DNA of 42,592 nt from Alphaproteobacteria bacterium (GTDB taxonomy: Bacteria; Pseudomonadota; Alphaproteobacteria; Rickettsiales; UBA8987). Shown here piece after piece: positions 5,641 through 18,942 of this stretch (its first letter is position 1; the number at the start of each line of letters is the position of its first letter). The notes beneath the pieces were generated by a model. That model worked only from the letters and a program-made list of their open reading frames with translations, was not told the DNA's origin and made no database searches. The stretch lies in the NCBI GenBank assembly GCA_046302855.1, contig JBKCHH010000062.1, positions 1 to 42,592 on the forward strand. Direction: 5' to 3'. A program made the translations under genes and the position numbers.

Positions 5641-6713
5641 TGTAAGGGTTGGGTAATTCACTGCTGGAAATTGATTTTATCATATAACTATACTTTTATA
5701 AGGTTGCAAGCCGTTTAAAGCGCGGGTGCAGGCCTTATTTCGTTGTAATAAACGATGTATTTTAGAAGCTCTTCTTTGAAATGCTCGATTGATTCAAAGT
5801 AAGTTTCGTTAATTAAATCATCGTTTAAGGTACGCCAGAAGCGTTCTATTTTGCCATTAGTTTGCGGGCGATAAGGCTTGGTGTACCTATGTTTTATGCC
5901 CATTTCTAAAAGCATTTTTTCGAATGGATGCCCCTCTTTTTTTGCTGAGGTTTTTATACCAAACTCTGATCCGTTATCAGTAATGGCTTCTAAAAATTCA
6001 ATTTTGTAATTTCTTTTTATGTGATTAAAACAACGCATGGTAGCAAACATTACCGTTAAAGATTTGATGTCATCAACCACCTCCACCCAAGCTGTACGGC
6101 TTTGATCGTCAACCACACCAACCAAGAAATATCTTTTATTAGCATTGAAAATTAAATTTTTGTTTAGGTAGTGACAATCAATGTGAGCAAGCTCTCCCGC
6201 TTTTTCTCTGATGATTCTACGCTTCTCAACTTTCTGTTTTGGTTGTAATCTATTCATATTATTTCTTTGAAATATTGCGTAAATACATGAAACTGAAGGA
6301 GTTTTTTCACCAAGTTCACCGCTCAAAATATCATGAATTTCGTACTTGCTCAAGCCTCTTTTTCTTATTTCCACAACCCTGTTTTCTATAGAAATATCTA
6401 TTCTTCTGCTTAAATATTTCGGACCCCTTCTCTGTGGCACTAGGCTTTCAGTATCGCCACTTTGCTTGTAGCGATTATAGTACTTTGAAAAGTTTTGATG
6501 GCAAATCCCTCTATCCTCATAAAAATCTTTAACAAAACGGTACTTCTTATGCTCTCCCTTCTTTATAAGCTCATATTCAGTTATCCAACTGCTGTATCTA
6601 TTCACTTGGTCTCTTTTTAAGGTCTCCTCGAAGCTGATAGCTCTTTCCATATCTTCCTCCCAGAAGTTTGTTTTTTACTATCAATTTCAGCAGTGAATTA
6701 CTAGACCTTTACA
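5641..6713 (-). mobile_element. IS481-family insertion sequence, 1073 bp
   Basis: TGT...ACA ends. Imperfect TIRs 5641-5675 (TGTAAGGGTTGGGTAATTCACTGCTGGAAATTGAT) and 6680-6713 (reverse complement TGTAAAGGTCTAGTAATTCACTGCTGAAATTGAT). Flanks GTAAT / GCAAT. Confidence 0.9.
5715..6650 (-). CDS. IS481-family DDE transposase (C-terminus apparently frameshifted)
   Basis: GELAHID, VVDDQSR, TDNGSEF, PYRPQTNGKIERFWRTL, YYNEIRP motifs; lies inside the TIRs. Confidence 0.9.
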   Translation of the reverse strand: MERAISFEETLKRDQVNRYSSWITEYELIKKGEHKKYRFVKDFYEDRGICHQNFSKYYNRYKQSGDTESLVPQRRGPKYLSRRIDISIENRVVEIRKRGLSKYEIHDILSGELGEKTPSVSCIYAIFQRNNMNRLQPKQKVEKRRIIREKAGELAHIDCHYLNKNLIFNANKRYFLVGVVDDQSRTAWVEVVDDIKSLTVMFATMRCFNHIKRNYKIEFLEAITDNGSEFGIKTSAKKEGHPFEKMLLEMGIKHRYTKPYRPQTNGKIERFWRTLNDDLINETYFESIEHFKEELLKYIVYYNEIRPAPAL

Positions 6714-10275: not shown

Positions 10276-10343
10276 GGTGTCCTCAATGGTTTACAAAAAA
10301 ATGAAAAGTGCCTTCCTCCAAAGGCGTAAATATGTACAACCGC

Positions 10344-10374
10344 AGTTTAGCAGAGAGAGAGAGAGAGTTGTCAA
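10344..10374 (-). promoter_or_regulatory. Sigma70-type promoter with (CT)8 microsatellite in the spacer
   Basis: TTGACA (10374-10369), 19-bp spacer containing (CT)8 (10367-10352), TAAACT (10349-10344). Confidence 0.65.
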
Positions 10375-10626: not shown

Positions 10627-12708
10627 TTAAGCCGCTTTTTTTCTAATTTCTTCGGCTATGGCGTTTGGAGTGGCAGCGTAGTTGGCAAACTGCATGGTGA
10701 ACTGTGCCCTGCCTTGCGACATAGATCTAAGAGTCGACACATAGCCAAACATAGAGGCCAGTGGCACCTTAGCACTAATTACTTTGGCGTTGCCCCTTTG
10801 TGTCATTTCTAAAATCTGTCCACGCCTAGAGTTTAAATCACCGATAATATCGCCCATATAGTCTTCCGGCGTTACTACTTCTACACCCATAATTGGCTCC
10901 AGAAGAACAGGGCCTGCCTGCTTCATACCCTCACGAAAGGCAGCACGCGCTGCAATTTCGAAAGCAAGGGCAGACGAATCCACCGCGTGGAAAGCACCAT
11001 CTTCAAGGGTCACCTTAAAGTCTATGGTTGGATAGCCAGCCATTACGCCCTTAGTAGCCTCTAGCTGAATTCCCTTATCTACAGCTGGGATATATTCTTT
11101 TGGAACATTACCACCAACAACGGTAGATTCAAACTCATAGCCTTTTCCAGCCTCTTGTGGTTCAAATTTAACTTCAATTTTAGCATATTGACCCGCACCA
11201 CCTGATTGCTTTTTGTGAACATAAGTTAGCTCAAAAGGCTTGGTGATAGTTTCACGATAAGCAACTTGAGGTGCACCAACATTGGCCTCCACCTTAAATT
11301 CACGCTTCATTCTATCCACAATAATTTCTAGGTGAAGCTCACCCATTCCTTTAAGAATGGTTTGCCCAGTTTCTTCATCACTTTTAACTTGAAGAGAAGG
11401 ATCTTCAGCCACCAGCCTTTGAATAGCGGTGGACATTTTTTCTTGGTCTGCTTTAGTCTTTGGTTCAATGGCAAGTTCAATTACTGGCTCTGGGAAATCC
11501 ATTTTTTCAAGCACAATAGGAAAATCTGGATCACACAAGGTATCACCCGTTGTTACTGATTTCATTCCCACTAAAGCAACAATATCACCCGCAACGGCTT
11601 GCTTTATGTCTTCACGGTTGTTAGCATGCATTAATAACATTCTACCCACCCGCTCTTTTTTATCTTTAGTTGAATTTATTAGCCCATCACCTGCACTTAA
11701 AACACCAGAATAAATGCGAAGGAAAATTAAATTACCCACAAATGGGTCATTCATTAGCTTAAAGGCAAGACCAGAGAATTTTTCATTATCGATTCTTTTT
11801 CTAGTGATTGGCTTATCTGTGCCAACTTCTACGCCTTCAGCATCACTTAAATCAGTAGGGCAGGGTAGGTAATCCACAACTGCATCTAGCAAACACTGCA
11901 CACCCTTGTTTTTAAAGGCTGAGCCACAAAGAACGGGAATAAAGGTTCCAGCTATTGTGCCTTTGCGAATGCAGGCTTTAATTTCAGCATTGGAAATGGT
12001 TTCGCCGTTTAGATAACGCTCCATAATGTCATTATCCATTTCAACGGCAGTTTCAAATAACTTAATTCTATAGGTTTCTGCCTTTGCCTTTAGTTCGGCT
12101 GGAATTTCTACAATATCGAACTTGGCACCAAGCTCTTCACCACTCCAAATTAAAGCCTTGTTCAAAATTAAATCTACCACGCCTTTAAAATTTTCTTCCA
12201 CACCTATTGGAAGCAAGGTAACTAAGGGTTTTGCCCCAAGCCTTTCTGAAATCATATCTACACAACGGTAGAAATCTGCCCCAGTTCTATCTAGTTTGTT
12301 CACAAAGCACATTCTTGGCACGCCATATTTATCTGCCTGACGCCACACAGTTTCAGATTGTGGCTCAACCCCTGCCACCCCATCAAATACAGTAACAGCA
12401 CCATCTAGAACCCTTAGAGACCGCTCTACTTCAATGGTAAAATCCACGTGCCCCGGTGTATCTATAATATTGATTCTATGCCCATTCCAAAAACAAGTTG
12501 TGGCGGCTGAAGTTATGGTTATGCCCCTTTCCCTTTCCTGCTCCATCCAGTCCATAGTGGCGGCACCTTCGTGAACCTCTCCAATCTTGTGTGATTTACC
12601 AGTATAATATAGAATACGCTCGGTAGTTGTGGTTTTCCCAGCATCAATGTGAGCCATTATGCCTATGTTACGATACTTAGAAATTGGATATTGTCTAATG
12701 TTGGACAT
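10627..12708 (-). CDS. fusA: Elongation factor G
   Basis: [52 protein letters not shown]; 693 aa. Confidence 0.99.
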
Positions 12709-12774
12709 GAGTATTTGTTGTTTTGGAGGGTGATTTACTAAAGGTTAAGGGTTTTTAGTCAAGAGAAAAGTTTT

Positions 12775-13491
12775 TTAGTCTTCTGATTTTGTGGGGGCTG
12801 AGAGTGTTTTTTCTTTTTTTATCTGGTAAAAGGCATCGGAAATTTTTGCCATGCGTAAATTCAACATAGCTTGAAAGGTTTTGGGGTAGTTAATGTTGGG
12901 GAACTTATCTGGGTGATATTGCTTTACCTTATCCACATAGGCTTTCCGCAGAGATTTTAAGGTTACCGAACTTTTGCTAATACCAAAAAACTTGTAAGGG
13001 TTAGAAACATCTGGCATTAGAATTTTTTTAAAGGCTTGGTTTAAGAATTCTTCTTTTATATCAAATACATCCGCAATTTTACGAATGGAAATTATGTCTA
13101 TTTGTTTTAGCTCATCATCCAGCAGTAAAAAGGTAATTATGGTATTTAGTGTATTTTCATACAGGGCAAATTCCTTTACAAAAAACCGCTGGAGCATATT
13201 GGCGTAGTATTCTTCATCAAATTCATCTTCCCCTATTTGGGCAATAATTTTATCTAGCTCATTAGTAGAGATAGATTTTAGAATTTTTTGAACAATAAAG
13301 TGGCGGTGCGGATTGGTTAAACGCAAGTTCTTAACGCCAAAGTTTATAGATTTATTCCGCATATAAACCTTTACTAATAGGGCTAGCAGAAAATGTTCAA
13401 GGGTAGAGCTTCTAGAGGTCTTATGCCCCAAAATAGTTTGAAATGAATCTTTTTTTTGGTTGGGTATGAAGAATTTTTTTATTCTAATCAT
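12775..13491 (-). CDS. J-domain protein with C-terminal J domain (DjlA-like)
   Basis: NPYKFFGI...LRKAY...QYHPDKF...ISDAFYQIKK with HPD motif. Confidence 0.75.
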   Translation of the reverse strand: MIRIKKFFIPNQKKDSFQTILGHKTSRSSTLEHFLLALLVKVYMRNKSINFGVKNLRLTNPHRHFIVQKILKSISTNELDKIIAQIGEDEFDEEYYANMLQRFFVKEFALYENTLNTIITFLLLDDELKQIDIISIRKIADVFDIKEEFLNQAFKKILMPDVSNPYKFFGISKSSVTLKSLRKAYVDKVKQYHPDKFPNINYPKTFQAMLNLRMAKISDAFYQIKKEKTLSAPTKSED

Positions 13492-13500
13492 TGTAATTGG

Positions 13501-14265
13501 TTATTTTTCCAATCTACTCCAGATTCTTTTTTTAGCTAGAAAGAATATTATAGTAAATACAAGGGTGAAAAGCATTACCTTTAGCCCCATTGCTTTTCTT
13601 TCTTCCATTTCTGGCTCTGCCGCCCATTGCAGAAAATTTACCACATCCTTTGCCAGCTGTTTTTTGTTAGTAGCTGTGCCATCTTGATACTGAACTAAGC
13701 CATCTTGCAGAGGTTCTGGCATACCTATATTATAGTTTCCGGCTGCAAAATACTTGTTGTAATATTTTCCCTCTGGAACTTGGTGATCTTTCGGAGCCTT
13801 TTCATAGCCGTTTAGTAAAGAATAAACATAGTTTGGTCCTTCTTCACGGGCTTTTATTATTAGGGATAGGTCAGGTGGCAAAGCACCGCCATTAGCGTTT
13901 CTAGCAGATTGTTCGTTAGGGTAGGGGCTTTTAAAGTGATCTGATGGTAGGCCAGCCCTATCAAACATTTCACCTTCATCATTTGGACCATCTGGAATTA
14001 AATATTCTGAGGCTATTTGCTTAACTTCAGCTTCACTAAAGCCAATTTCTTGTAAATTACGGTAGTAGATTCTTTTCATAGAATGGCAGGCAGAACATAC
14101 CTGCTTATAAACCTGATAGCCCCTTTGCACCGATGCCCTATCAAACTTGCCAAAAACCCCTTCAAAAGCCCATTTTTCGTTTAAAAGCTTTGTTTCTGGC
14201 TGAGCAGCACTGGCAGTGGTTAGTGAGGCAAAAAATAAAATAAGTGCAGATAAAATCCTAATCAT
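13501..14265 (-). CDS. petC: Cytochrome c1 (bc1 complex)
   Basis: RGYQVYKQVCSACH heme motif, ANGGALPPDLS, FLQWAAEP, C-terminal TM; ATG at 14265 gives a signal peptide. Confidence 0.96.
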   Translation of the reverse strand: MIRILSALILFFASLTTASAAQPETKLLNEKWAFEGVFGKFDRASVQRGYQVYKQVCSACHSMKRIYYRNLQEIGFSEAEVKQIASEYLIPDGPNDEGEMFDRAGLPSDHFKSPYPNEQSARNANGGALPPDLSLIIKAREEGPNYVYSLLNGYEKAPKDHQVPEGKYYNKYFAAGNYNIGMPEPLQDGLVQYQDGTATNKKQLAKDVVNFLQWAAEPEMEERKAMGLKVMLFTLVFTIIFFLAKKRIWSRLEK

Positions 14266-14369
14266 TTTTAATATATATTTACGCCTGATATAACTTCTAT
14301 CCAAAAATCAATCAAGATTATTTTGTTTTTTTGTGAGGAACTATCTTAATTAATAAAAAAACAGGACTA

Positions 14370-15131
14370 TTATAGGTTTCTTATAACTAAATCTATAATT
14401 TCTATTGTATCGTGTTTATGAGAGGGACTAAGCATTCCAAAGATTTTAATCATTTCAATTATTATAAATGCATTATCTTTGTCAATTTTAAAATCTGCAA
14501 ATTCTTTTAAATTAGCACACCTTCCAACCAAAGGAATATCAGAATTTAGCTCTGTTATAGGGAAGCAAAAATATAACATAGGCTGAACCCCAACAGCTCG
14601 TTGCTTTTCTCTAATCGTAATTTCTGTTATTATTTCATAATGTTTAAATTTATGAATAAGTTGAGGATATTCTATTTTTAAAACCTTAAAATCTAAACCA
14701 TTTATCTTTTCGCTAACAGGATGGGTTCTTTTTATTGTGCAATGAGGATGCTTTGAAATTAAACTATTTCCTTCTAAATTTTTGATAAAATTTTTTAAAT
14801 TTTCTAATTCTTTTATTTTGATTATATTAAAAGTAGCTAAATGATATAGATATTCACTTAATTCATAAAGAGCCTTTTTCTTGGTATTATAGGCAATAAA
14901 ATTAAGGTTTTTTAGGGTAGTTAAATCGATTTTATCGCTTGTAACTTCAATATCATATCCTATCTGCCACTCAATATAGTTTTTTTGATTAAATTTATTG
15001 CTTCTACTAGCAAACGGCAATCCATATCCATAAATATTATCTCTTTCTTTTATTCTTATTTTCCCTTTTGTTGTGGTAAGTGGTATAGGAACGATAATTT
15101 CTTTATTTTCTTTACTAACTTTTATAAACAT
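14370..15131 (-). CDS. R.PabI-family restriction enzyme (HALFPIPE fold, DNA glycosylase type)
   Basis: IPLT..GKIRIK.R, YIEWQIGYD, YELSE, KQRAVGVQPMLYFC and C-terminal SPSHKHD (H-x-x-D) recalled as PabI-family motifs; overlaps the adjacent methyltransferase; ATG at 15131. Confidence 0.82.
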   Translation of the reverse strand: MFIKVSKENKEIIVPIPLTTTKGKIRIKERDNIYGYGLPFASRSNKFNQKNYIEWQIGYDIEVTSDKIDLTTLKNLNFIAYNTKKKALYELSEYLYHLATFNIIKIKELENLKNFIKNLEGNSLISKHPHCTIKRTHPVSEKINGLDFKVLKIEYPQLIHKFKHYEIITEITIREKQRAVGVQPMLYFCFPITELNSDIPLVGRCANLKEFADFKIDKDNAFIIIEMIKIFGMLSPSHKHDTIEIIDLVIRNL

Positions 15132-16254
15132 AGTGATTATCAATTAATATTTTAAAATATTCTTGTATTTTTTCTTTTGACTCACTTACCGAAATATCAT
15201 CTCTTGTATTAATATATTTCTTCAAAAAACTATTTCTAGTTAAGCATTCCTGAACAAAATAATTTTTATATTTTTGAAATTTATTATTATTTATGAATAC
15301 ATCAAGATTCCCAAAGTAATAAGGCATCAAGTGGCTAAATTGCTTGAATACATCCACATAAACATAATAATCTAACTTATTTTTATCTACTATTATAGCA
15401 TTATATCCAAAATCTTTAACAAATGTTTGGTTTCTCTTTAAGGCGTTAATGTCCCGCATAGTCCAAAACAAAATATCATCTTTCTTTGGCAAAACATTTT
15501 TTAAAGGATATTTATTTATATAATTTGGGATAAAATCAAACTCCTTTAGTTTAAAACACTTTTTATCAATTGTTTCAAAATTGAAATTTCTTATATATTC
15601 ATAATCCATTCCCTCTTTATCTTTTGAATACAAAGCAATAATTATTGGAAAAGATATACCTTTTGATGTTTCTTTAAAAGTTGAACTATCAATTAAGATG
15701 CCATCAATTAATTTATAGCAACTGCTAAAATTTCTTAATAAATTGAAATTTGATTTTTTAATTAGATAAGATAATGGATGCAAAACACAAACTACATCTG
15801 CTTTAAGTTTAGCATAAGATAATAAAAAAGATATTCCGTAATCTCTTGTGCGAACATCGTCATCAATTTTTATATTATCTTTTTTTATATCACTTCTAAT
15901 TATTGATGTAGTATCGTTATAAGGGGGGTTTCCTATAATAATCAATTTATCATTTTTATCAATTTTAAATTCTTCTCTATTGATGTTTAATAGGGCATTT
16001 TTATTAAAAACTTCTATATTAGGAAAATTTATTTTAGTTTTATCTGCCGCAATTTTATCAAAATCGTTTGCTTTTTTTCTACAATCTATATCACTCATAA
16101 AAAAGTTTCCATATCCACAAGAACTATCTAGAACTATAGATTCTTTGCTTAAAAATGGTTTTATTAAATTCCACGCAATCTCTACATATTCAGGCGGGGT
16201 ATAAAATGCCCCTAGATTTATTTTATCCTTATATTGTAAGTGATGTTGATTCAT
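15115..16254 (-). CDS. N6-adenine DNA methyltransferase, cognate of the PabI-family enzyme
   Basis: LGAFYTP, LDSSCGYGNF (motif I), IIGNPPYN (motif IV), gamma-class order; visibly more AT-rich than flanking genes. Confidence 0.9.
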   Translation of the reverse strand: MNQHHLQYKDKINLGAFYTPPEYVEIAWNLIKPFLSKESIVLDSSCGYGNFFMSDIDCRKKANDFDKIAADKTKINFPNIEVFNKNALLNINREEFKIDKNDKLIIIGNPPYNDTTSIIRSDIKKDNIKIDDDVRTRDYGISFLLSYAKLKADVVCVLHPLSYLIKKSNFNLLRNFSSCYKLIDGILIDSSTFKETSKGISFPIIIALYSKDKEGMDYEYIRNFNFETIDKKCFKLKEFDFIPNYINKYPLKNVLPKKDDILFWTMRDINALKRNQTFVKDFGYNAIIVDKNKLDYYVYVDVFKQFSHLMPYYFGNLDVFINNNKFQKYKNYFVQECLTRNSFLKKYINTRDDISVSESKEKIQEYFKILIDNHYVYKS

Positions 16255-16256
16255 AA

Positions 16257-17405
16257 TTAAAACTTCAAATCCACCTTTTCCCAGCTGAAAAAGCCGCCTT
16301 TTTCTGGCTTTCTGCCAAAGTGGCCATAGGTTGCGGTGGGTAAGTAAATTGGTTTATGAAGCCCCAAATGCTCACGAATGCCCCAGGCAGATAAATCTAC
16401 CTGTTTTTGTAAAATATTACTTATTTCTGCGTCATCAATTTTGCCGGTATCGTGCGAATTTACATATAAGGCAACGGGTTTAGCAACGCCAATGGCGTAA
16501 GCTAGCTGAATGGTGCAGATATCTGCAATTCCATTTGCCACCACATTTTTGGCTAAATAGCGTGCAATGTAAGCGGCAGATCTATCTACCTTTGAAGGGT
16601 CTTTACCTGAAAAAGCCCCGCCACCATGGGGGGCACTGCCACCATAGCTATCTACAATAATTTTTCTGCCAGTTAAGCCGGTATCACTAACTGGTCCGCC
16701 AATTACAAACTTGCCGGTTGGGTTGGTTAGAATATCTTTTTCATCAATTTCCCATTGTTTAGGAAAAGTTTTCATAACAATTGGCACAATAAGTTCGCGA
16801 ACCTTTTTCTGTGAAAATTCTGCTAAATGCTGAATGGAAACCACTATTTTAGAAATGCCAATTGGCTTTTGATTTTCGTAAATTAGCGTTACTTGCGATT
16901 TTGCATCTGGCCCCAAGCCCTTTATTTTGGCGGCAAAAATGTTCTCTAAAACGCGGTGCGAATAGTAAATACAAGCGGGCATATAGCTTTCAGTTTCCCT
17001 GCAGGCGAAGCCGAACATAATACCTTGGTCGCCCGCCCCCTCGTTTTTTTTATCTTTATTATCTACCCCTTGGGCAATATCGGGCGATTGTGAGTGAACA
17101 AGGTTATGAATATTAACATTTTTGTATGAAAAGCCTTCAAAATCAAAGCCAACATCTTTTATAATTTTGGTGGCGATAGATGGCAAATTATCCCTTATTT
17201 TAGCACTTCCACGCACTTCACCGGCAAGCACTACGGTATCTTTAGTAACTAAGGTTTCTATGGCAACGCGTGAATAGGGGTCATCTTTTAAAAACTCATC
17301 TAGGCAGGCATCTGAAATTTGGTCAGCCAGCTTATCTGGATGACCCGCAGATACAGATTCGCTAGTAAATAGGTATTTTCCCTTCTTATAAAAACTACTC
17401 GTCAT
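16257..17405 (-). CDS. metK: S-adenosylmethionine synthetase
   Basis: FTSESVSAGHPDK, GAGDQG, GLTGRKII, GGGAFSGKD..KVDRS. Confidence 0.98.
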   Translation of the reverse strand: MTSSFYKKGKYLFTSESVSAGHPDKLADQISDACLDEFLKDDPYSRVAIETLVTKDTVVLAGEVRGSAKIRDNLPSIATKIIKDVGFDFEGFSYKNVNIHNLVHSQSPDIAQGVDNKDKKNEGAGDQGIMFGFACRETESYMPACIYYSHRVLENIFAAKIKGLGPDAKSQVTLIYENQKPIGISKIVVSIQHLAEFSQKKVRELIVPIVMKTFPKQWEIDEKDILTNPTGKFVIGGPVSDTGLTGRKIIVDSYGGSAPHGGGAFSGKDPSKVDRSAAYIARYLAKNVVANGIADICTIQLAYAIGVAKPVALYVNSHDTGKIDDAEISNILQKQVDLSAWGIREHLGLHKPIYLPTATYGHFGRKPEKGGFFSWEKVDLKF

Positions 17406-17469
17406 ATGTTTTATTTTTTCTAATTCGATAATATAAGTTTTTAGTTAAAACAAGTGGATATTTTATCCA

Positions 17470-18942
17470 TCAAAACCGCAAGCCCCTTTCTAAATCTTTG
17501 AATTTGCTTTGGAAGGAGAGGTCGGTTTTAAAGTTTTCCTCAATTTTTTTCACCGCATGGATTACGGAGGTGTGGTCTTTTCCGCCAAAGTTTCTGCCAA
17601 TTTCTGGCAGGCTAAAAGAAGTGTGTTTTCTAGCCAGATACATGGCAACATGCCTAGGCGTTGCAATGTTTCGACTCCTTTTTAAAGAGTTCAAATCAGA
17701 TACTGAAATATTATAAAATTCACACACTTTCTTTTTTATATTCTCTATAGTTATAGGCTTATGGGAAGAGATAATACTTTCTTGTAATAGCAAAATAATA
17801 CTTTCTTTTGAAAGGCTTAAGCCAAATGTTTCAACATTTAATTTAATTTTATTTATTGCCCCTTCAAGCTCTCTCATGCTAGTGGTAATTTTTTCTGCCA
17901 TTAGCTTGGCAATTTCTTCCCTCTCCACGGCATCATCAATTAAACTAACTAACTTTTGCTTGGCAAATTGAAGGCGTAGCTCATAATCAGCTGGCATAAT
18001 ATCTACCACCAAGCCACCGCTTATTCTAGATTTTACCGCCTCGTTAATATCATTTAAGCTAGAAGGAGCCCTATCGCCTGCCAGTATTACCTGCGTGCCG
18101 TTATTTACCAGCATATTGAATATGTGCAAAAACTCTTCCTGAGTTCCCTTTTTACCATTTATGAATTGAAAATCATCAATCAGCAAAATATCTATATTTT
18201 TGAACTTTTCTTTAAAGTGCATTATCTGATTGTTCTGCAAAGATTTTACAAAGTTAAAAATGAACCTTTCGATAGAAAAATACTCAATTTTTACCTCTGG
18301 CTTATTTGCTACAATATGGTTTCTAATGGAATGAAGTAAATGGGTTTTACCGTTGCCAACCAGCCCGTATAGGTAAAGAGAGTTAGTTTTTTCTAGCACC
18401 TTGCCACTTTCTGCAATTTTTTTGCAGATGGCAAAGGCTAGCTGATTGCTTTTGCTCACCAAAAAATTATCAAAATTGTGATTAAGATTAAACTTTTTGT
18501 TAAATAAATCGTCGCTAATTTCTGATATTGAAGGATTTTCTGACGATTGATTTTTTAGGTGGGAAAGAATTGAATTTTCTGCTGTTTTTTCTTTCGTCCT
18601 TTCAGTTGATTTTTTGGCAACCTTTATTTCCACCCTATAAATTAATCTATCGAACTTTAGGCAGGTTTTTATTATTTCTTCGCAGTATTTTTGCTCCACC
18701 CAATCCTTTATAAACCTTGTTTGGGCTTCAAGATGCAAGAATTTATCTTCTAGCTTTATAATTTTTAAATCCTTTAGCCAGCCGTTAAAATTTGCCTCAC
18801 CTATTTCTAGATGCAGAGATTTTAAAACCTTATCCCAAAAGGCATTTAACTTATAATTGCTTAATGGAATAGAAGAGGATTCTATTGGCAATTGCTGAAA
18901 ATTCTGCGGAGAATTAACTTCTATTTTTCTAAAATTATTCAT
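17470..18942 (-). CDS. dnaA: Chromosomal replication initiator DnaA
   Basis: LYLYGLVGNGKTHLL, LLIDDFQF, QEEFLHIFN, RELEGA, domain IV PRHVAMYL...LPEIGRNFGGKDHTSVIHA. Confidence 0.98.
   Translation of the reverse strand: MNNFRKIEVNSPQNFQQLPIESSSIPLSNYKLNAFWDKVLKSLHLEIGEANFNGWLKDLKIIKLEDKFLHLEAQTRFIKDWVEQKYCEEIIKTCLKFDRLIYRVEIKVAKKSTERTKEKTAENSILSHLKNQSSENPSISEISDDLFNKKFNLNHNFDNFLVSKSNQLAFAICKKIAESGKVLEKTNSLYLYGLVGNGKTHLLHSIRNHIVANKPEVKIEYFSIERFIFNFVKSLQNNQIMHFKEKFKNIDILLIDDFQFINGKKGTQEEFLHIFNMLVNNGTQVILAGDRAPSSLNDINEAVKSRISGGLVVDIMPADYELRLQFAKQKLVSLIDDAVEREEIAKLMAEKITTSMRELEGAINKIKLNVETFGLSLSKESIILLLQESIISSHKPITIENIKKKVCEFYNISVSDLNSLKRSRNIATPRHVAMYLARKHTSFSLPEIGRNFGGKDHTSVIHAVKKIEENFKTDLSFQSKFKDLERGLRF

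Follow-up and report, generated by a model that had tools for sequence, protein, structure and literature searches.

A putative PabI-type restriction glycosylase cassette and the avoidance of GTAC in a small-genome freshwater bacterium of the Rickettsiales

Gene content and conserved residues of the cassette

We analysed a stretch of 42,592 nucleotides (contig JBKCHH010000062.1, hereafter the 42.6-kb window) from the assembly GCA_046302855.1 (G000), which comprises 1.34 Mb in 101 contigs with 36.6% GC, is 95% complete and belongs to a small-genome freshwater bacterium. The element studied here, an M-R (modification-restriction) cassette, occupies positions 14370-16254 on the minus strand and consists of two overlapping open reading frames (ORFs). 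The first gene, M (15115..16254, minus strand), encodes 379 aa and is a predicted gamma-class N6-adenine DNA methyltransferase of the bacterial M.PabI-homologue family, with the motifs DSSCGYGNF and IIGNPPYND and a C-terminal target-recognition domain. The second gene, R (14370..15131, minus strand), encodes 253 aa from its ATG and is assigned, by PF09522 and by the structure PDB 7cfa_A, to the PabI-family (HALFPIPE) restriction DNA glycosylases of the mesophilic R.CcoLI/R.HpyAXII type. An alternative TTG start at 15143 would extend R to 257 aa (14370-15143), and its close homologues all start at the ATG. To our knowledge, restriction glycosylases are the only restriction enzymes that act by base excision.

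The original prediction, which had been made from the sequence of the window, described an intact-looking M-R pair with an IGYD tyrosine and an H-x-x-D motif. This description holds, as both ORFs are open and R contains EWQIGYDIE and SHKHD. A search with the RE_R_Pab1 profile (PF09522), suggested as a check, places R in this family: R scores 145.4 bits where the cut-off is 25 (E 1e-42) and covers positions 2-118 of the 119 in the profile, and a six-frame search of the genome gives 147.9 bits on R. Furthermore, R aligns with R.CcoLI (7cfa_A) at E 3.1e-46 over query residues 18-255 of 257, and with the R.PabI structure 2dvy at E 5.7e-17, the R.PabI entries ranging from E 6e-17 to 2e-15. From this coverage of the solved R.CcoLI, we infer that R would adopt the HALFPIPE fold.

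The functional residues of the family have been described for R.CcoLI, with the catalytic triad Y52/H222/D225, the apurinic/apyrimidinic (AP) lyase lysine K71 and the GTAC base readers K17, R19, E47, Q49, I50, Q158, Q164, M166, Y168 and F215 (PMC7806768), and for R.PabI, with the catalytic residues Y68/H211/D214 (residue roles from PMC7806768, PMC10273834). We mapped the R.CcoLI residues onto R by hand via the HMMER alignment, on the assumption that a tag shifts the PDB chain by 3 residues. In the 253-aa numbering, the catalytic Tyr, His and Asp of R are Y59, H238 and D241. The AP-lyase lysine is K86 in NTKKKALYELSE, which is aligned to K71 of R.CcoLI and is invariant in 32/32 sequences. All ten base readers are kept (K24, R26, E54, Q56, I57, Q177, Q183, M185, Y187 and F231), and the catalytic, lyase and base-reading residues listed here are invariant or nearly so in the 32-sequence family alignment.

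In M, motif I (D43..G47.G49.F51) is followed by motif IV (G108-N109-P110-P111-Y112), and these residues are invariant in 28 sequences. The order of motif I, motif IV (NPPY) and a C-terminal target-recognition domain defines the gamma class as described in PMC4615327. The AlphaFold model of M (predicted local distance difference test 87.3, predicted template modelling score 0.88) has as its top Foldseek matches in the PDB the adenine DNA methyltransferases M.BseCI (E 6e-8) and CamA, the type I protein HsdM and BpuSI. These matches have a template modelling score of no more than about 0.4 across some 240 columns: the catalytic domain is matched and the target-recognition domain is not. In the six-frame search, PF02384 reaches 23.1 bits on M (cut-off 20.4), a marginal score, and PF07669 stays under its cut-off of 25.3 with 24.2 bits.

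The two genes also occur together elsewhere. A homologue of M adjoins R in 78/80 genome loci, and in the other two R lies less than 150 nt from the locus start. M is directly upstream of R on the same strand in 77/80 loci; the gap between them is -19 to +98 nt in 76 of these 77, and 1571 nt in the remaining locus. The identity of M to the homologues in the Helicobacter and Campylobacter loci is 43-47%. Judged by gene order and sequence similarity, M is the usual partner of R and the pair is a canonical bacterial PabI-type cassette.

The stop region of M and the start of R overlap by 17 nt (15115..15131, minus strand), and R is likely to be translationally coupled to M via this overlap. At the upstream junction (16255..16259, minus strand), 2 nt separate the metK stop codon (16257-16259) from the M start codon, which leaves no space outside metK for a separate promoter. 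The M-R overlap together with the M start 2 nt past the metK stop makes co-transcription with metK probable, with both genes read from the metK transcript. A scan for promoters and terminators around the cassette did no better than on shuffled sequences (27 promoter-like sites versus 27.8). The gene after R encodes cytochrome c1 (petC; PF02167, 13501-14304), and the AT-rich spacer at this downstream junction (14266..14369, minus strand) measures 65 nt up to a TTG at 14304 or 104 nt up to an ATG at 14265. This cytochrome c1 gene is found without an adjoining cytochrome b gene, and no match to PF00033 (cytochrome b) was detected in the whole of the 95%-complete assembly.

Avoidance of GTAC in the window and in the host genome

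The window contains seven GTAC sites, six at 5830-6543 and one at 10334. By comparison, 100 dinucleotide-preserving shuffles give an expectation of 54.6 +/- 6.5 (with at least seven sites in 100/100 shuffles), and a second-order Markov model gives 50. The six clustered sites lie in an rve-type transposase gene (5715..6650, minus strand; PF13683/PF00665). The original prediction had counted by eye a single GTAC outside this insertion sequence, and this count proved to be exact. Its expectation of about 130 sites corresponds to a zero-order model and makes the deficit look about 2.5 times too large. The transposase gene is a single copy in the assembly, where blastn finds just a 66%-identical relative on contig C86, and it is probably recent foreign DNA. 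The lone site outside the transposase gene (10334..10337) is in a non-coding stretch and adjoins a (GA)n run of about 8 units (10345-10365) in the gap upstream of the gene for elongation factor G (EF-G).

Genome-wide, 318 GTAC sites were observed against 1712 expected by the Markov model, an observed/expected ratio (O/E) of 0.186, and against 4507 by the zero-order model. Removal of four contigs with 58-62% GC leaves 292 sites versus 1690 (O/E 0.173). The depletion thus holds under the Markov correction that had been proposed as a check, at 0.17-0.19. Depletion extends to all ten flanking contexts of GTAC (O/E 0.06-0.25), which is what a 4-bp target would give. A codon-phase analysis of 855 long ORFs of the host genome revealed a deficit in each of the three phases. 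Tyr is encoded by TAC in 4.4% of cases after a G-ending codon versus 25.5% otherwise, a C-starting codon follows Val GTA in 1.0% of cases versus 11-28% after other Val codons, and Thr follows an xGT codon in 0.8% versus 5.0%. GTAC is therefore strongly and specifically avoided in this genome.

The remaining sites are unevenly distributed, with 150/318 in 28 clusters. Some of these are on high-GC contigs and others in accessory genes, namely the photolyase cluster of C74, DUF285 surface proteins, a WbsX glycosyltransferase, an inverse autotransporter and the rve transposase of the window. The four contigs mentioned above (C63, C75, C76 and C96) are 2.2-3.9 kb long with 58-62% GC versus 36.6% for the genome, are rich in GTAC and ACGT, have no Rfam match and are probably binning contaminants. 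Ribosomal RNA was considered as the source of the small contigs rich in GTAC and ACGT and was rejected. None of the seven contigs searched had an Rfam match, and a GC content of about 60% explains four of these plus C75 and C63, which are all likely to be binning contaminants.

Distribution and horizontal transfer of the cassette

Homologues of R (614) and of M (2174) are found on the same contigs. The nearest locus (L002) belongs to a Rickettsiales metagenome-assembled genome (MAG), with an R that is 88% and an M that is 74-75% identical to the proteins of the window, in the same M-R order with an overlap. Three genes flanking this locus have clear counterparts in the host genome; these are 42-54% identical and located on other contigs. 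Since the identity of the cassette is far above that of its flanking genes and its context is different, the cassette looks horizontally acquired. In a quick IQ-TREE phylogeny of R with 75 rows (74/80 loci and the window, six loci with a partial match or a stop being omitted), the window pairs with the Rickettsiales MAG with a support of 99 in the Shimodaira-Hasegawa-like approximate likelihood ratio test (SH-aLRT). The clade around these two mixes Spirochaetota, Cloacimonadota, Bacteroidota, Aminicenantes and Nautiliaceae and is separate from the Helicobacter/Campylobacter clade. Because this clade comprises several phyla, the phylogeny, which had been suggested as a means to find the donor, does not allow a donor to be named.

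The original prediction had also taken the AT-richness of the cassette as a sign of acquisition. The cassette is indeed AT-rich (GC of 0.249 versus 0.370 in the remaining window), and the comparison to the MAG agrees with an acquisition. However, the GC of the cassette is lower than that of its flanks in 66/66 loci, Helicobacter loci included; low GC is thus generic to the cassette and says nothing on the date or recency of its acquisition.

The cassette is rare among the relatives of the host. In the wider class, PF09522 was detected in 2/401 genomes, the host included, and the sole other copy (G259:C5:22111-22465; L143, L144) is split by a TGA codon. Among 40 nearer relatives, none of them of the same genus as the host, neither PF09522 nor the M family was detected (0/40). 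This agrees with the earlier view that such a system is unexpected in the Rickettsiales, although the surprise is softened by the 88%-identical Rickettsiales MAG protein, which NCBI has already named as R.Pab1 family. Beyond the class, the M-R cassette occurs across more than 20 phylum-level groups, including Patescibacteria, DPANN archaea and Poribacteria. The genome loci include Rickettsiales, Spirochaetota, Cloacimonadota and Campylobacterota, among others, and L003 and L024-L081 add many Patescibacteria as well as Woesearchaeota, Pacearchaeota, Poribacteria and Bdellovibrionales. The family has been placed in Helicobacteraceae, Campylobacteraceae and a few (hyperthermophilic) archaea (PMC10273834), and Brachyspira, Mycoplasma and Mucispirillum have also been named as carriers (PMC4615327). 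The loci found here extend well beyond the taxa given in PMC4615327, PMC10273834 and PMC7806768, although the supplementary taxon tables of PMC4615327 may list more. A literature search on PabI in Rickettsiales returned nothing relevant by title, and one on restriction glycosylases in metagenomes returned nothing beyond a review. We also observed a metagenome protein of 640 aa (P0164) in which an M homologue (68% identical) is joined to a PF09522 domain; this protein is a natural fusion of M and R or else the product of a gene call that reads through.

To place the locus itself, 60 metagenome loci and L002 were searched for the neighbour genes of the window, and none of them has the metK/petC context; the other 79 genome loci were outside this comparison. 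One metagenome locus contains a 38% MetK-like match on the opposite strand, which we take as a coincidence. In metK-centred stretches of 20 relatives, none of the window neighbours (cytochrome c1, DnaA, EF-G, DnaJ-like and rhodanese-like proteins) was found within about 10 kb of metK, and these stretches offered no empty site for comparison. In nature, the locus is stable: an independent freshwater study provides contigs that span 12601-15352 and 15506-18500 with 0 differences and bridge both junctions, and the R-petC junction is also bridged in contigs of two other studies. A cassette-free joint was not seen in the contigs of four runs; as contigs drop rare variants, cassette-free alleles may nevertheless exist.

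Origin of the avoidance and role of the cassette

We consider it likely that this locus holds an intact Type II restriction-modification (RM) cassette of the PabI family that was gained by horizontal transfer, fits the GTAC avoidance of its host and probably helps to maintain it, which is a weaker claim than being its original or sole cause. In the proposed mechanism, the predicted M most likely makes GTm6AC on the host DNA, and the predicted R most likely acts on GTAC by flipping out the unmethylated adenine and excising it, after which the conserved lysine of R would nick the abasic site by AP-lyase action. The avoidance of GTAC is one part of a Helicobacter-like avoidance of multiple palindromes (ACGT > GTAC > GCGC, GGCC, GATC). 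This avoidance is lineage-specific, and it is seen in at least one relative in which no PabI cassette was found.

Several observations on the proteins, the host genome and its relatives weigh against this reading. Searches of M with hmmscan gave neither a Pfam family (even at E 10) nor an NCBIfam family, and the M profile matched PDB sequences only in the region of the S-adenosylmethionine-binding motif, at E 0.003 or worse. The GTAC specificity of the cassette is predicted from homology to characterised members of the family, which cut GTAC in Helicobacter and Campylobacter (PMC4615327, PMC10273834, PMC7806768). Over 65 PabI-bearing loci of at least 8 kb, the GTAC O/E has a median of 0.48, with 20 loci below 0.3 and several near 1. 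Furthermore, ACGT is the most depleted 4-mer of the host genome (119 versus 1048 expected, O/E 0.113) and GTAC is the second. No cognate RM system for ACGT was identified in a search of the genome with five methyltransferase Pfam families. In addition, GTAC-rich islands exist at normal GC, such as 17 GTAC versus 1 ACGT in 12 kb of C74. A relative, G008, is depleted in GTAC (24 versus 150, O/E 0.16 over 220 kb), and no PabI R or M was found in it.

The idea that the target of the resident system would be the most depleted word is contradicted by ACGT, with an O/E of 0.08-0.11. Without the high-GC contigs, ACGT has 81 occurrences versus 1012 expected (O/E 0.080), and the window contains 2 ACGT sites in 42.6 kb. 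GCGC, GGCC and GATC are also low (O/E 0.23-0.32), and the eight lowest-ranked 4-mers are all palindromes. Besides M, the host encodes one N6_N4 enzyme, an MmeI-like fragment and a Type ISP-like fusion, and neither C5 (PF00145) nor Dam-type (PF02086) methyltransferases were found. The N6_N4 enzyme (299 aa, PF01555) and an overlapping 173-aa ORF for a PD-(D/E)XK nuclease (PF20472) form a second Type II RM pair on C26:7211-8625 (L103:1312-2729), between dnaK and a cation ATPase gene. Copies of this nuclease are 77% identical in G013 and 57% identical and TGA-interrupted in G026. We considered the C26 pair as the cognate system for ACGT and set it aside as doubtful, as the nuclease is found in the ACGT-depleted G013 yet not in the equally depleted G008. 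The MmeI-family Type IIG enzyme is cut by the contig start (C59:5-1552), and the same contig contains a 1038-aa ORF with N6_Mtase and Type ISP C-terminal domains (C59:23098-26211).

Among the relatives, depletion follows the presence of the cassette only in part. The GTAC O/E is mostly 0.5-1.0 in 20 metK-centred stretches of relatives. In larger samples of cassette-free relatives it is 0.78 in G009, 0.98 in G010 (GC 0.37) and 0.87 in G011, and in the cassette-free G003 it is 0.87 from the metK stretch alone. These values show that the loss of GTAC is not a family-wide mutational bias. Equal depletion in relatives that had never carried a GTAC-specific system had been named as grounds for refuting the original prediction; among the cassette-free relatives, G008 (0.16) is equally depleted and these four (0.78-0.98) are not, so that avoidance can exist without a PabI cassette. 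In G008, which is 99% complete and has no detectable PabI remnant, ACGT (0.05), GCGC (0.11), TCGA (0.12) and CATG (0.14) are depleted as well. A different GTAC system may be present in this genome, as it carries one N6_N4 and two C5 methyltransferases, whereas the undepleted G009 has neither family. Helicobacter-like avoidance of ACGT, GCGC, TCGA, CATG and GTAC is shared by G008 and G013 (L082, L099, L123-L132), two species of one related genus; G015, a third species of this genus, and other genera are without it.

The GTAC-rich, ACGT-poor islands are found at C74:1-12000 (L110), on C79, C70, C16 and C22, and at C5:49000-57000, and their products include photolyase/cryptochrome-type proteins, DUF285 surface proteins, an inverse autotransporter, a WbsX glycosyltransferase and an S15 peptidase. 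Their presence at normal GC indicates that GTAC-bearing DNA has entered the genome and persisted. These islands resemble accessory DNA of later origin that had crossed a barrier for ACGT but not one for GTAC.

A possible, if tentative, explanation for these patterns is that the scarcity of GTAC preceded the cassette. The host, G008, G013 and the Rickettsiales MAG, as small-genome relatives from freshwater, would then share a Helicobacter-like avoidance of ACGT, GTAC, GCGC, GATC and GGCC that was imposed by a rapidly turning-over community pool of 4-bp RM systems. If so, it was only the prior rarity of its target that let a toxic base-excising enzyme settle in a 1.3-Mb genome without Ku. The PabI cassette would then be a replaceable tenant, one in a series, and the ACGT signal, the strongest of all, would point to a system in the host that is either lost or unrecognised so far.

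According to the original prediction, a long-resident PabI cassette itself purged GTAC by self-restriction whenever methylation lapsed, which we regard as unlikely. Such a purge would agree with an intact R and M in which the key residues are all kept, with an O/E of 0.17 that is uniform over contexts and codon phases, with the undepleted state of most cassette-free relatives and with the same link described for Helicobacter and Campylobacter (PMC10273834). It would also agree with the detection of the same locus in samples of at least three studies with no cassette-free joint seen. However, the high identity of the cassette to that of the distant MAG (88% and 74-75% versus 42-54% for housekeeping genes), its other context there and the absence of the metK/petC context from all tested loci argue against a long residence. 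Furthermore, G008 is equally depleted without a cassette, GTAC-rich accessory islands persist, and ACGT is lower still without an identified cognate system, so that a resident system is not needed for depletion. The selection had been described as long and strong; it is strong, with an O/E of 0.17-0.19 in all phases and contexts, whereas long residence is not borne out by the tested loci. Since multiple palindromes are avoided and a cassette-free relative is depleted, the causal and temporal claims of the original prediction remain unproven.

It is quite improbable that the cassette is present yet no longer restricts, either because R is inactive or silent or because M is de facto an orphan methylase, and that the avoidance is a relic of earlier systems. 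In Helicobacter, disruption or replacement of the R gene is frequent in this family (PMC4615327, PMC10273834), another genome of the class has the TGA-interrupted homologue, and GTAC-rich islands have entered the host genome. However, R of the window is a full-length frame with no stops, has kept every catalytic, AP-lyase and base-reading residue that was checked and overlaps M in the canonical coupled arrangement.

Finally, the view that the loss of GTAC is a by-product of composition or mutation (codon bias, TA or CpG-like dinucleotide effects) with no selection on a restriction target might appeal to the AT-richness of the genome and the inflated zero-order expectation, but it is largely refuted by a deficit that persists under the second-order Markov correction and dinucleotide shuffles, by eight lowest 4-mers that are all palindromes, by the effect on all three codon phases and all flanking contexts and by undepleted relatives of similar GC such as G010.

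We thus favour an acquired PabI cassette that probably helps to maintain the avoidance of GTAC, and this interpretation can be compared to known systems. The cassette is most similar in kind to R.CcoLI/M.CcoLI of Campylobacter coli (PDB 7CFA) and R.HpyAXII/M.HpyAXII of Helicobacter pylori. These share with it the full-length homology, the catalytic Tyr/His/Asp, the base readers, the insertion by the catalytic Tyr that bears the AP-lyase lysine (K71 in R.CcoLI, K86 here), the position of M upstream of R on the same strand with a close or overlapping arrangement, and the avoidance of GTAC by the host. The Helicobacter and Campylobacter loci are, however, only about 44-48% identical to the cassette of the window, whose R belongs to a different, mixed-phylum clade, and the host here is a small-genome freshwater bacterium of another class. 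In addition, the position between metK and cytochrome c1 corresponds to none of the loci described for Helicobacter and Campylobacter in PMC4615327. R.PabI/M.PabI of Pyrococcus abyssi (PDB 2DVY, 3WAZ) belongs to the same Pfam family with the same catalytic triad, and its KQRAVG recognition segment can be aligned, but the likeness to R is weaker and limited to two separate stretches (E 5.7e-17). In archaea, M is the longer protein, and the two genes are arranged differently than in Helicobacter/Campylobacter (PMC4615327, PMC10273834). P. abyssi does not avoid GTAC (PMC10273834), whereas the host of the window does. The pair of the Rickettsiales MAG, its sister in the R tree, differs in its neighbours and in its host with 28% GC, where the GTAC O/E is 0.35 from 20 kb only. 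GTAC avoidance in Helicobacter and Campylobacter and a mutual exclusion of PabI with Ku have been reported (PMC10273834), and no Ku gene was found in the host genome, which matches this exclusion.

The same M-R cassette is now seen in an alphaproteobacterial-type small genome. Furthermore, this genome is a clean case outside Helicobacter of multi-palindrome avoidance with few identifiable RM genes, and it can thus be used for testing whether avoidance outlives the systems that caused it.

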